A stretch of DNA of 63,187 nt, filler included, from Reclinomonas americana ATCC 50394 (GCA_048213135.1; 16 parts of 16 records of this genome joined end to end with filler, not necessarily neighbours in it), one strand, 5' to 3'. Shown: positions 281-60,120, counted from the first letter of the whole stretch. The notes: generated by a model from the letters alone, not told the origin. Translations and numbers: made by a program.

Positions 281-1505
281 GCGGCCGCGTGGTCTACGGC
301 GTCTACGGCGACACTTTTGCAGTTCCCAGTCGCGGCCAAACCATGTCCACCGCTGTCGCCAACCTCCTCCAGCGCCAGTTTGGCGCCGAGCAGGTGAATG
401 GCACGCGCACGCTTGCCATTTCATGGAGACGCGGCGAGGCGCTTTCCGACACCATCATGGATGCGCTCGAGCACTACCTGGTGCACTACCCAGACGAGGG
501 CGTGCCGTTCTCGCCGGACGTTGTGGCGTTGCACGCGAGACAGCGACTGGCGCTGCGTGGGCCCTTTGACTGTTGAGTCTCACGTACTCTCATTCCTCCA
601 TTCACCCTCTCACTTGGGCATGCTCTCTCGCAGGTGTCGGCGATTGGGACCATGCTCCAGATGACGCTGGTTTGCAACACTCTTGCGCATCTCTCGCATC
701 CATATTCACTCATTCGAAGTACTCGCAGCTGTGCCAGAGGCGCCCCTGCCACTCCAGATCGAGGTTTGCCTTTCTCTTTTTCTCTCCCTTTCCCTCCTCA
801 TCACCTTCCCTAACTTCACTTGCAGGTCGCGCTATGCTTCTTCTACGACGCTCGCACCAAGACGAGCACCATTCGCCGCATATCAGCCGACCTGGCGGCA
901 ACTCTGTCGGCGCGCGCTCGTGGCCGCCTGGTGATTCACGCCCAGTTGTACGCGCTGGAGACGGACAATGTGTTGCATGTATTGCAGCACAATATGCGAC
1001 CCTCAGACGTGGCGGTCATGGTGGTGCAAGGACGACCGTCGTTCCAGTGGTCGCGCGACGATGCAGCCCTGACGCAGGCACACGCGGCACTACGCACGCG
1101 AGGTCTGCCCACTCGCCTCTTTCTTTGGCCCTTCCGTACTGGCTTCATCTCACTTGGTTATTGTGCGCAGGTCCGATTGTGTGTTTCGTGGTGCACGATC
1201 GCAACTCGCGCGGTCTGCGAAGACCAGCAGCCGGGTGCGTGGCGCTGGAGACGGCACTGCAAGCCGAACGTGCACTTCCGGGGCGCCAAATCAATGGCGA
1301 GGATGGTTTGCTGGTGGCGCTGGATCACGATGTGGAGCCGCTGCATGTGCGTGCGTTTGCGCACGCCATTCAGTGCCAGTTGACGGGCCAGTGGTCGGCT
1401 TTTGATATTTCAGCAGACGAACGCGGTGGTTTGGTGGGAGTTGCAGGCGGTGGCAGCGGCGCTGCCGCAGCAGATGGGGGCGGTGGTGGTTGTGCAATAT
1501 TATGA
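281..1505 (+). CDS. Hypothetical protein with C-terminal CaaX (CAIL) prenylation motif; spliced, 5' end uncertain
   Basis: Exons join in frame across introns 572-633 (T|GTTGAGT), ~669-719, ~763-825 and ~1103-1170, giving ...RGPFDCVGDWDHAPDDAVLAAVPEAPLPLQIEVALCFFYD...GGGGCAIL*. No recognisable family. Confidence 0.6.
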
Positions 1506-1528
1506 GCAAGTACATTGTACACCGATCC

Positions 1529-57983: not shown

Positions 57984-57992
57984 GGGTTGCAG

Positions 57993-60120
57993 TTGTGTGA
58001 TTTGGGGCTGGCGCGCAGCGTGGATGCCGAGGACATTGAGCGGAAGAAGATGACGCTGTATGTGAGGTACGTGACTCGATACGTGACGTGAGGAGGATTG
58101 TTACTTATTGATCGTGTACGCTGCCTGCAGCACGCGGTGGTATCGTTGCGTGGGTGCGAGAAGGGCGGGGGGCGAGAGATGTGGTTGAGTGGGGAGTAGT
58201 AAGGAATGGAAGGGAGAGGAGAATAGTTCTGTTTTCAGAAAGGATGGAATAGTGAGAGATGAGGCTGCTTGAAAGGAACGGGCGCTAGCTTGCGAGTTAG
58301 AGAGGGAAGGAGAACAAGACGCGTGTAAGGAACAGGAGAAGAGAGCTATGAGACGAGAGAAAAAGAAGAATGAGGGAGAAGGGAGAGAAAGGTGCTGATG
58401 TGCAGCTTCTGTGGTGACAGATCTAGAGGGAAGGAGAACAAGACGCGTGTAAGGAACAGGAGAAGAGAGCTATGAGACGAGAGAAAAAGAAGAATGAGGG
58501 AGAAGGGAGAGAAAGGTGCTGATGTGCAGCTTCTGTGGTGACAGATCTAGGTTGGTGAGAATGGTGAAGATACGTGCGCATACTTTTAAGAGAAGCAGGG
58601 CAGCCGTTTATGTGCACTATTCTGTGGTGACAGGCTCGTGAGAGAGGCTGCTTGTAAGGAATCGACGCGTATTTGTTCAGGGAGAGAGAGGGCAAGTCGA
58701 ATATGTGCGCTATTCTGTGGTGATGGGCTGAGAGAGAGATCCTTGTTGAAAGGAATTGGTGGTTATATGTGCGATAGAGAACGAGGAAGAGAAAGAGCAA
58801 AGCGTTTGCGTGCAGTGTTCTGCAGTGACAAACAGGCGAGAGAGGTTGCTTGACAAGAACTGGCGCTTACCTGTGTGAGAGAGAATGAGAGAGAGAGAGA
58901 GAGAGAAAGAGAGAGCAAGTTTGTAAAGTAGGCAGCAGGATTTCGTGAGCGACATGGGCACAAGAAGCACTCTGGCTCGCCCAGTGTTCTAACCGTTCGT
59001 GCTCTCTCCAGGACCCCCCGAGATCATCATGGAATCACGGGAGTATTCATTCAATGATATCCTTTTTGCTGCTCGTCGTCTCTTTGTTACTTGGCACGCC
59101 TCGATCCTTGACTCGTCTCCTCTCACCCGACGTGTGGTCGCTGGGTGTGATGCTGGCCGAAATGTATGCAGGCGAGCCGATTATTCAGGGAGCGTCTTGT
59201 TGCGTCGCAGACCACGATGACTGAGAGGCAGACCGCGATAGTTGACATGATCTTCGTGCAGATCGAGAGCAGCTGACTCGCACACTGGCCATTGTCGGCA
59301 CCCCGGATGTGAGCCGCATTAGCACGTGGGCGTCGGCGGGAGTTGCGTGGCGGTGGAAAGAGAGGGAGGAAGAGGGGAGGGGAGGGAGACGAAAAGAGAG
59401 AAATGCAAGGGGAGGAGGAGAAAAGAAGAGAATCACAATCGGAAAAAGGAGGTTATGTGAGCGGAACGGGAGAGACAAAGCAAATAGAGAAGAGTAAGGC
59501 AAGAGGAGATGGATTGCCAAACGAGAGGCCACCAGATAGAGAGCAAAAAGTACAACTGCTTCGAGGGAAATCGTTCTGCGAGAAGATGATTCGGGTGACA
59601 GCAACTTTCTTTCCGCGAAAACAAGTGTTTCCCGTCGCCATCCTCACCTCGCATCCACAGGCCTACTCATTCCTCAGCAAGCACCCGCCGCAACCGCGTC
59701 AAGACCTGGCCGCCGTTGTCCACCAGCCTGCAGACGGTTTGCACGCCAGCGCATTCGTCTACTCCCTCGAGCTCGTCCTTGTACCCACTCATCTCGCGCA
59801 GCTGCTGTCGTCGACCTGCTCGATCACATGCTGCAATTCAATCCCGACGATCGCTACTCGCTCCAGCAGGTCATGGTGCATCCGTACTTTGACGAGGTGC
59901 GCGAGGGCCCCGTGGATCTGGTGCCGCTGGAGCCCGTCGACTTTAGCTTTGAGCGCGATATGACGATTGCGCATATCAAGGGTGAGCAGGGAGGTGCAGA
60001 AGGGGAGGGGAGGAGAGAGAGAGAGGTGCGAGAGAGTGAAGCTCACCAACGTGCACTGCAGAGGAGGTGTGGAACTGCATCCGCGCCTTCCATCCCGACT
60101 TGTCGCCGATACCCGAGTGA
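57993..60120 (+). CDS. MAP kinase (TxY = TLY), 5' half not located (upstream of gap)
   Basis: Spliced: LCDLGLARSVDAEDIERKKMTLYVSTRWYRPPEIIMESREYSFNADVWSLGVMLAEM..IIQGASYREQL..VGTP..VDLLDHMLQFNPDDRYSLQQVMVHPYF..FHPDLSPIPE*. Confidence 0.92.
58301..58548. repeat. Near-perfect tandem duplication, 2 x 124 bp, in a MAPK intron
   Basis: AGAGGGAAGGAGAACAAGACGCGTGTAAGG...CTTCTGTGGTGACAGATCT starts at 58301 and again at 58425. Confidence 0.92.
59057..59126 (+). other. U12-type (minor spliceosome) AT-AC intron, 70 nt
   Basis: 5' ATATCCTTT; branch TCCTTGAC at 59105-59112; 3' CAC. Removing it gives AAT G|CC GAC GTG TGG = N-A-D-V-W, restoring kinase subdomain IX. Confidence 0.95.

Follow-up and report, generated by a model that had tools for sequence, protein, structure and literature searches.

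The stretch of Reclinomonas americana ATCC 50394 DNA considered here (GCA_048213135.1; 63,187 bases, referred to throughout as the window) is nuclear, eukaryotic and gene-dense, with numerous short introns, and these introns begin in two different ways. Beside ordinary 5' splice sites, or donors, of the form (A)G/GTNNGT (the slash marking the cut), the window carries an abundant class, typified by GTTGCGT, in which the donor motif is shifted by one base into the intron. The first-pass annotation of this DNA had claimed such a second donor class, and the claim is borne out by enrichment in a gene finder that is blind to donor sequence, by a reading-frame test and by alignments of homologues across the junctions of a PDE gene. 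Judged from the sequence, the class is genuine, and the same data support its frequency, its cut position and its dependence on the bases at -1, +3 and +4/+5; its members are, on this evidence, genuine major-type (U2-type) GT-AG spliceosomal introns. What appears to be new is that a donor mode known as an exception has here turned into a routine, rule-governed second donor code. A search of published text for the motifs GTTGCG/GUUGCG and GTGCGT/GUGCGU brought up no comparable splice sites, sequence logos within figures and supplements being outside its reach.

Donor-blind enrichment and position of the cut

Enrichment was measured with a self-written dynamic-programming gene finder built on a three-periodic coding model seeded with Pfam-positive exons, in which every GT was eligible as a donor and every AG as an acceptor and in which donors were left unscored; for a second pass it was extended by a model of intron content and a learnt matrix for acceptors, again without donor scoring. 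Already in the first pass the commonest donor hexamer on the plus strand was GTTGCG (13 of 99 donors; 1 of 59 on the minus strand), and in the second it ranked first over both strands together (20 of 128), whereas it accounts for only 89 of the window's 7621 GT sites (binomial p = 8e-17). The hexamers GTAGCG, GTCGCG and GTGGCG yielded no donor at all from 157 copies, against 20 from the 89 copies of GTTGCG, and GTT donors as a whole showed an excess of G at +6, with 26 of 52 donor-blind donors compared with 388 of the 1493 GTT sites in the entire window (p = 2e-4); as far as a single window can show, this is the excess that the earlier claim called for. When the finder was instead supplied with a learnt hexamer table, it recovered, at the exact base, 23 of the 34 plus-strand sites and 2 of the 5 minus-strand sites listed in the first-pass annotation, those missed lying mostly beside microexons or very long introns.

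All 39 of the coordinates listed in that annotation carry the hexamers attributed to them (31 GTTGCG, 4 GTTGAG, 2 GTTTCG, 1 GTTATG and 1 GTTCCG). Across the whole window the heptamer GTTGCGT occurs 29 times on the plus strand and 5 times on the minus strand, a distribution that tracks the coding strand, and 27 of these 34 copies are listed donors while one more is a further donor at 43225. Only two copies are clearly exonic and unused, and a G precedes both:

8465-8471 (-): exonic, unused GTTGCGT, coding G-L-R-G-M of a PP-loop domain; G before the motif (first base at 8471)
25869-25875 (+): exonic, unused GTTGCGT, coding L-F-G-C-V-D; G before the motif

The position of the cut was addressed by a frame-blind test, in which the best upstream frame was chosen by coding statistics, the nearest acceptor passing the matrix and followed by coding-like sequence was then taken in whatever frame it lay, and the offset k that reconciles the upstream and downstream frames was read out. 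An acceptor was located for 32 of the 39 sites, with k = 0, 1 and 2 in 22, 4 and 6 of them; among introns of at most 350 nucleotides (nt), 19 of 22 require an offset of 0, that is, a cut exactly at /GT modulo 3, and in the three exceptions (13828, 27296 and 44568) the acceptor chosen lay farther away than that of the gene finder. The control, comprising all GT sites with coding-like sequence upstream, was uniform, at 533, 583 and 570.

In the gene that encodes GAF and PDE domains the junctions were also tested by BLAST searches with junction-spanning peptides. At 16830 (KPFP/IARQW), 139 of 143 high-scoring segment pairs (HSPs) span the junction and 135 do so without a gap, compared with 5 spanning and 2 gapless for the alternative donor at 16837; at 17949 (IGVA/EMVNK), 81 of 84 span, 68 of them gapless, against 5 gapless for the in-frame alternative at 17955; at 19404 the junction is spanned by 39 of 47, 34 of them gapless; and at 19716, which falls in a variable loop, all 56 of 56 span and merely 4 are gapless. 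Normal donors within the same gene behave similarly. The gapless homologues at 16830, 17949 and 19404 and the 19 of 22 frame-test introns, set against a uniform control, uphold the earlier claim that cleavage falls before the GT.

One of the normal-class donors of this gene, AAG/GTAAAT of the intron at 17251-17181 (minus strand), has no G at +5, and its junction is spanned by 152 of 156 HSPs, 151 of them gapless; the normal class is therefore loose too.

Support was obtained for 32 of the 39 listed sites, 31 of them through the gene finder, the frame test or homology and one (43674) through the 13-nt microexon that precedes it, and for the additional donor at 43225; every one of these 33 supported introns begins with GT and ends with AG. 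They are listed below with their evidence, the strict set being that of strict gene-finder introns.

6447-6510 (+): shifted intron GTTGCGT..CAG, NUDIX gene; gene finder, Pfam NUDIX on the upstream exon
13592-13659 (+): shifted intron GTTTCGT, TANGO6/RTP1-like gene; gene finder, frame test k = 0
13828-13901 (+): shifted intron GTTGCGT; gene finder, strict set
16059-16830 (-): shifted intron, 772 nt, PDE catalytic domain, KPFP/IARQW; homologue alignments
17890-17949 (-): shifted intron, GAF domain, IGVA/EMVNK; homologue alignments
19338-19404 (-): shifted intron, PDE gene; gene finder, homologue alignments
19650-19716 (-): shifted intron GTTGCGC, ACTAAC 4 nt ahead of CAG; gene finder, frame test, BLAST
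24384-24456 (+): shifted intron, repeat-domain gene at 23.8-29.6 kb; gene finder, frame test, strict set
24564-24688 (+): shifted intron, weaker support; acceptor by eye and comparison of paralogous exons
24940-25013 (+): shifted intron; gene finder, frame test
25308-25517 (+): shifted intron behind a cadherin-like repeat exon; gene finder, frame test, strict set
25723-25800 (+): shifted intron; gene finder, frame test, strict set
26318-26411 (+): shifted intron; gene finder, frame test, strict set
26700-26794 (+): shifted intron behind a cadherin-like repeat exon; gene finder, frame test, strict set
27296-27421 (+): shifted intron; gene finder (frame test took the farther acceptor, k = 2)
27893-27980 (+): shifted intron; gene finder, frame test, strict set
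28209-28344 (+): shifted intron behind a cadherin-like repeat exon; gene finder
28654-28856 (+): shifted intron behind a cadherin-like repeat exon; gene finder, frame test, strict set
35033-35110 (+): shifted intron; gene finder, frame test, strict set
37125-37187 (+): shifted intron; gene finder, frame test, strict set
38283-38385 (+): shifted intron GTTGAGT; gene finder, frame test, strict set
39076-39300 (+): shifted donor, acceptor uncertain, the assembly gap 39128-39227 lying inside the intron; gene finder
42143-42214 (+): shifted intron GTTTCGT; frame test k = 0 (gene finder preferred an in-frame GTTTAT 12 nt downstream)
42664-42728 (+): shifted intron GTTATGT, the sole supported member with G at -1; gene finder, frame test, strict set
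43225-43295 (+): additional GTTGCGT donor beyond the earlier list; gene finder
43421-43497 (+): shifted intron GTTGCGG, SLC35-like gene; gene finder, frame test
43674-43732 (+): shifted intron following the 13-nt microexon; microexon
44568-44655 (+): shifted intron; gene finder, strict set
48953-49349 (+): shifted intron, TMEM17-like gene; gene finder, Pfam
55617-55681 (+): shifted intron GTTGCGC; gene finder, frame test
58145-59011 (+): shifted intron, 867 nt, purine-rich, MAPK gene
59199-59261 (+): shifted intron, MAPK gene, ..QGAS-Y-REQL..
59342-59660 (+): shifted intron, MAPK gene; gene finder, frame test

The seven listed sites that fall outside the supported set are the following.

572-577 (+): GTTGAG, neither acceptor nor frame convincing; the gene finder took 520
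46996-47001 (-): GTTGCG
47231-47236 (+): GTTGCG
51723-51728 (+): GTTGAG, repeat copy of the 52608 context
52608-52613 (+): GTTGAG, repeat copy of the 51723 context
53440-53445 (+): GTTGCG
53906-53911 (+): GTTCCG

Sequence features and frequency of the shifted class

Features were compared between 31 shifted and 46 other introns. All 31 shifted donors have T at +3 and G at +6, in agreement with the earlier claim that the conserved +5 G sits at +6 in this class, 27 have T at +7, and none has G at +5; the whole donor signal thus appears to lie one base deeper in the intron, with +6 G and +7 T acting as the +5 and +6 of a normal donor. On the exon side, G occupies -1 in only 1 of 31 shifted donors as against 35 of 46 normal ones (Fisher p = 3.8e-11), and the -1 composition of the shifted class (A 11, T 11, C 8, G 1 of 31) may be set beside that of the normal -2 (A 21, T 9, C 8, G 8 of 46). 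The depletion of G suggests that the last exon base may act as a normal -2 rather than a normal -1, although T is as common there as A.

The two classes also differ in the interior of the donor. The +4/+5 dinucleotide is GC in 27 of the 31 shifted donors but the corresponding +3/+4 in only 8 of 46 normal ones (p = 1e-9), the latter being GA in 9, GC in 8, TT in 6 and GT in 5, with others making up the remainder, and the preference persists when the repeat-domain gene is excluded (16 of 20 shifted donors against 5 of 22 GTNNGT donors, p = 5e-4). The earlier description, in which nearly every variant is a common normal donor plus an extra T, is formally true, whereas the proportions in which the variants occur are not those of the normal donors. 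Beyond the donor the classes are alike: median intron length is 78 nt for the shifted and 77 nt for the other introns (p = 0.44), both end in (G/A)CAG with a C/T-rich tail and with CAG at an equal offset, and their interiors have nothing in common except microsatellites.

The acceptor consensus across the window is unusually specific, the base at -4 being G in 52-70% and that at -3 being C in at least 90%, giving (G/A)CAG/, and a branch-like ACTAAC can lie only 4 nt ahead of the CAG, as in the intron ending at 19650 (minus strand). Short introns are mostly rich in C/T and contain (CT)n runs, and the two longest shifted introns, at 16059-16830 (minus strand) and 58145-59011 (plus strand), are GA-rich on the sense strand and contain internal direct repeats.

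The shifted class makes up 14 of 47 strict gene-finder introns (30%) and 31 of 76 (about 40%) of all supported introns, the latter set pairing 31 shifted introns with 46 others, one of which duplicates 42143 (45 distinct); the share of about 30% given in the first-pass annotation was thus a fair one. Eleven shifted introns belong to a single gene at 23.8-29.6 kb, where cadherin-like repeats are encoded as single phase 1-1 exons, so that several of these introns are paralogous and not independent; about ten other genes account for a further 20 supported members. Both donor classes are mixed inside single genes, namely the PDE gene, the MAPK gene and a gene with a TIG domain.

Candidate modes of recognition and their relation to known systems

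The explanation we prefer, to which we would grant a little less than an even chance, is that the shifted donors are read in a U1 register displaced by one base in an organism whose single U1 small nuclear RNA (snRNA) is divergent, the pairing, the register and the U1 sequence being inferred. A second donor code, H/GUUGCGU (with H denoting any base except G), would then exist beside the ordinary (A)G/GUNNGU, and would correspond to (A)G/GUGCGU with the +1 G replaced by U and the cut made one base upstream. In this code the G(+1) of the intron would replace the exonic G(-1), U(+3) would replace U(+2), and G(+6) and U(+7) would replace G(+5) and U(+6). The U1-type snRNA responsible for early recognition would pair one base out of register, the catalytic core (U6/U5/Prp8) would cut at the sole GU, which lies one base upstream of where the shifted register points, and the last exon base would set the code, G directing the normal and non-G the shifted mode. 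The U1 5' end of the organism would differ from ACUUACCU at the two middle positions, a difference expected to become apparent only where the U:C mismatch at +2 weakens the helix.

Duplex energies bear on the identity of this pairing partner. Calculated with RNAduplex, the textbook U1 end AUACUUACCUG pairs with GUUGCGU (CCAGUUGCGUCG) at -1.4 kcal/mol, in the weakest tier of 16 NN variants, and this best duplex is no better than that of a normal donor lacking G(-1), with the shifted register not clearly more stable; GUUGAGU reaches -5.8 kcal/mol with the same U1 end, yet it is rare here. Given G5 and C6, a hypothetical U1 end reaches -9.3 kcal/mol with GUUGCGU, and the addition of A8 gives -13.6. 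The register flexibility suggested earlier, if it were simply that of a standard U1, consequently does not explain the consensus. The weakness of the textbook pairing implies that the partner of the shifted donors probably differs from canonical U1, as either a divergent U1 or a second variant, and the other suggestion of the first-pass annotation, variant U1 or U6 snRNAs, becomes more attractive as a candidate.

Several considerations weigh against a single divergent U1 in a shifted register. If the sole U1 had G5 and C6, normal donors should prefer GUGCGU, and the dinucleotide counts given above reveal no such preference; the 5' end of U1 is, moreover, almost invariant among eukaryotes. Under a shifted register, A would be expected at -1 and C at -2, and A is seen in only 11 of 31 (T also in 11) and C in 12 of 31. 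A G at -1, which a G:U wobble should accommodate, is nearly absent, and this strict avoidance is explained neither by a single divergent U1 nor by a second one. Finally, 11 of the shifted sites are concentrated in one gene of repeated exons, and the set of normal donors comes from a home-made gene finder with some wrong calls, including one duplicate.

It is possible, though on balance we hold it unlikely, that the shifted class has a dedicated second U1-type snRNA or other small RNA with a 5' end ..ACGCAAC.., complementary to GUUGCGU, while canonical U1 serves the normal class. Such an RNA would account for the tight seven-base consensus (GC at +4/+5 and T at +7 each in 27 of 31) at positions where the normal class is degenerate; it would account for the poor fit of canonical U1 (-1.4 kcal/mol), given that an end with G5, C6 and A8 forms a perfect helix (-13.6 kcal/mol) and that most normal donors pair poorly with it; and it fits the fate of the 34 GTTGCGT copies, among which are 27 listed donors as well as the donor at 43225. 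Precedents exist in human variant U1s and in the protist Sulcionema specki, which has U1 genes with differing 5' ends (PMC12621601). Against a dedicated RNA stand the rarer GTTTCGT, GTTATGT and GTTGAGT donors, which would pair with it less well (-5 to -8 kcal/mol), the exclusion of G at -1, which it leaves unexplained, and the 3' signals and lengths that the two classes share. On the same tentative footing, the major spliceosome would follow two parallel donor codes, each with its own U1-type snRNA, the second U1 reading introns that follow a non-G exon base. If this were true, it would in effect add to U1 and U11 a third way in which spliceosomes recognise 5' splice sites, one used by about a third of all introns.

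A standard register in which one U, at +2 or +3, forms a bulge in the U1 helix is improbable. A one-base bulge does predict GUU followed by the normal last four bases, and the "bulge +2/+3" register is listed in humans, where 68 sites are predicted and 54 curated among 201,541 donors (PMC4856993). However, the bulge would keep the G(-1):C9 pair, so that a G at -1 is expected where 1 of 31 has it, and the two GTTGCGT copies preceded by G are exactly those left unused. Nor need the bulged base be U, yet A, C or G at +3 is never used (0 of 157 copies); the exclusion of -1 G and the restriction of +3 to U therefore disfavour the bulge.

Boundaries lying one base to the right on both sides (G/UU...AGN/), which would give introns that start with UU and are read in the normal U1 register, have very little probability in our estimation. 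The reading frame alone cannot discriminate here, as both cuts move together, and the mRNA would be identical wherever the next exon begins with G (58145, 17949 and 19404). CAG nevertheless stands at an equal offset in the two classes, and the junction residues favour /GT..AG/: at 16830 the isoleucine it produces is shared with 50 homologues, with L in 41 and V, the residue of the alternative cut, in 23, and at 19716 its serine is shared with 13 homologues whereas C is outside the top 8. To our knowledge, no spliceosome uses a first intron base other than G and none cuts one base past AG, and these boundaries would require both.

We consider it equally remote that the class is a gene-modelling artefact, the sites being either no introns at all or introns spliced at nearby canonical donors, with the motif enriched for some other cause. 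Support is lacking for 7 of the 39 sites and the gene finder is home-made, but such an account conflicts with the donor-blind enrichment (p = 8e-17), with the frame test (19 of 22), with homologues that align over the junctions while nearby alternative donors fail, and with the disruption that read-through would bring to conserved PDE, GAF and MAPK motifs. Least credible of all are copies of a mobile "introner" element bringing its own GTTGCGT end, an idea invited by the nearly invariant 5' heptamer and by the several members in one gene, since an all-against-all BLAST of the two intron sets (31 shifted, 46 other) yields matches only at (CT)n/(GA)n microsatellites, which normal introns share equally, and conservation does not extend past base +7.

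Pairing of the U1 5' end with the donor is among the most conserved RNA-RNA contacts in eukaryotes, and displaced registers count as rare exceptions to it; shifted-register 5' splice sites of mammals are said to have been described by Roca and Krainer in 2009 (NSMB), and the bulge +2/+3 and asymmetric-loop registers reportedly by Roca et al. in 2012. The portions of Tan et al. 2016 (PMC4856993) drawn on here give shifted and bulged registers as proven at a small number of human sites, put the validated non-canonical registers together at 1.5% of 201,541 donors, and state that a G at +5 forces the canonical register. The class described here resembles the mammalian shifted register in that GU is cut as usual while the helix would be displaced by one base, with G(+1) in the role of the exonic G(-1) and with G at +6 and U at +7 in place of +5 and +6, a +5 G being absent here. 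It departs from the rare human sites, as they are presented in those portions, in three respects: it comprises some 30-40% of the introns in the window; it requires GC in the middle, where canonical U1 cannot pair, whereas the human model site of the melting table has AA (ACA/GUCAAGUAUA); and the choice of class is linked to the last exon base. The bulge +2/+3 and asymmetric-loop registers of the same source likewise have one extra nucleotide between GU and a +5/+6-like GU, but they keep the pairing of exon base -1, whereas here -1 G is excluded (1 of 31) and the extra base is always U.

Variant U1 snRNAs, such as human vU1 and those of S. specki, likewise offer a possible second recognition RNA, although the portions of the sources used here describe no matched donor class for them; the two U1 genes of S. 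specki, with their different 5' ends, are given there as about equally complementary to its one donor logo (PMC12621601). U12-type introns, too, place two donor codes in one genome. The shifted class, unlike them, is without the RTATCCTT donor and the TCCTTRAC branch, and its 3' end is that of normal introns.

A genome in which about a third of the donors are displaced by one base would offer a natural experiment that separates the finding of a donor (U1) from its cutting (U6/U5/Prp8) and that probes how far the U1 end can evolve. In practical terms, a gene finder trained on only one donor matrix will get a large proportion of this organism's genes wrong.

Microexons, other introns and gene content

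Two plus-strand microexons end at shifted donors and encode the core of a conserved motif:

43661-43673 (+): 13-nt microexon TTATGCCACGGCT, ending at a shifted donor, SLC35-like gene
58131-58144 (+): 14-nt microexon CACGCGGTGGTATC, MAPK gene, giving ..TLYVS-TRWY-RPPE

We take the TRWY and RPPE obtained through the 14-nt microexon to be the MAPK activation-loop and P+1 motif, and the 13-nt microexon presumably fits the SLC35 family motif, with YATA ahead of VVKSCK. The MAPK gene also contains a U12-type AT-AC intron of textbook form at 59057-59126 (plus strand), with the donor ATATCCTTT, a branch-like CCTTGAC 13 nt from the end and a terminal CAC, whose excision joins ..EYSFN-A-DVWSLG.. in frame; RTATCCTT occurs only once in the window, at 59057. 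The presence of this intron implies that the organism has a minor spliceosome.

The PDE gene contains two candidate mini-introns with normal donors, one of 35 nt at 19523-19557 (minus strand; GTGCGT) and one of 34 nt at 18725-18758 (minus strand; GTGAGC), both needed for an open frame, with read-through meeting a stop; homology gave no confirmation of the exact borders of these 34-35 nt introns. A full HMMER search with one exon of this gene returned 150 relatives, at most 50% identical; those with names come from euglenids, a diplonemid and trichomonads. The U12-type intron and the donor logo of the window are at odds with the diplonemids of PMC12621601. Word-based protein searches yielded either hits of 27% identity or nothing, so that the protein collections contain no close relative, and a scan of metagenomes likewise turned up none.

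Pfam families recognised on single exons of the window comprise NUDIX, PP-loop ATPase, TANGO6/RTP1, GAF, PDEase, SUEL lectin and galactosyltransferase, together with fn3, IPT/TIG, TMEM17, protein kinase and, weakly, cadherin-like repeats. Rfam gave no match of any kind in the window at gathering scores, and at E up to 1 it gave sub-threshold look-alikes of microRNAs and small nucleolar RNAs but no snRNA.

The window, whose G+C content is 56%, has 15 assembly gaps (e.g. 5864-5963), and each of them is built as 44 N, TTAATTAATTAA and 44 N. The spacer TTAATTAATTAA is a six-frame stop linker, which identifies the record as a scaffold joined with an artificial spacer. On the plus strand between 51.6 and 53.2 kb a segment of about 0.9 kb is present in two copies that flank the gap at 52308-52407, so that the contexts at 51723 and 52608 are identical, as are those at 52177 and 53051. 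One copy enters an open reading frame with an HNH_2 endonuclease domain (52561-53589), and the duplicated segment may be a repeat or mobile element and not an ordinary gene.

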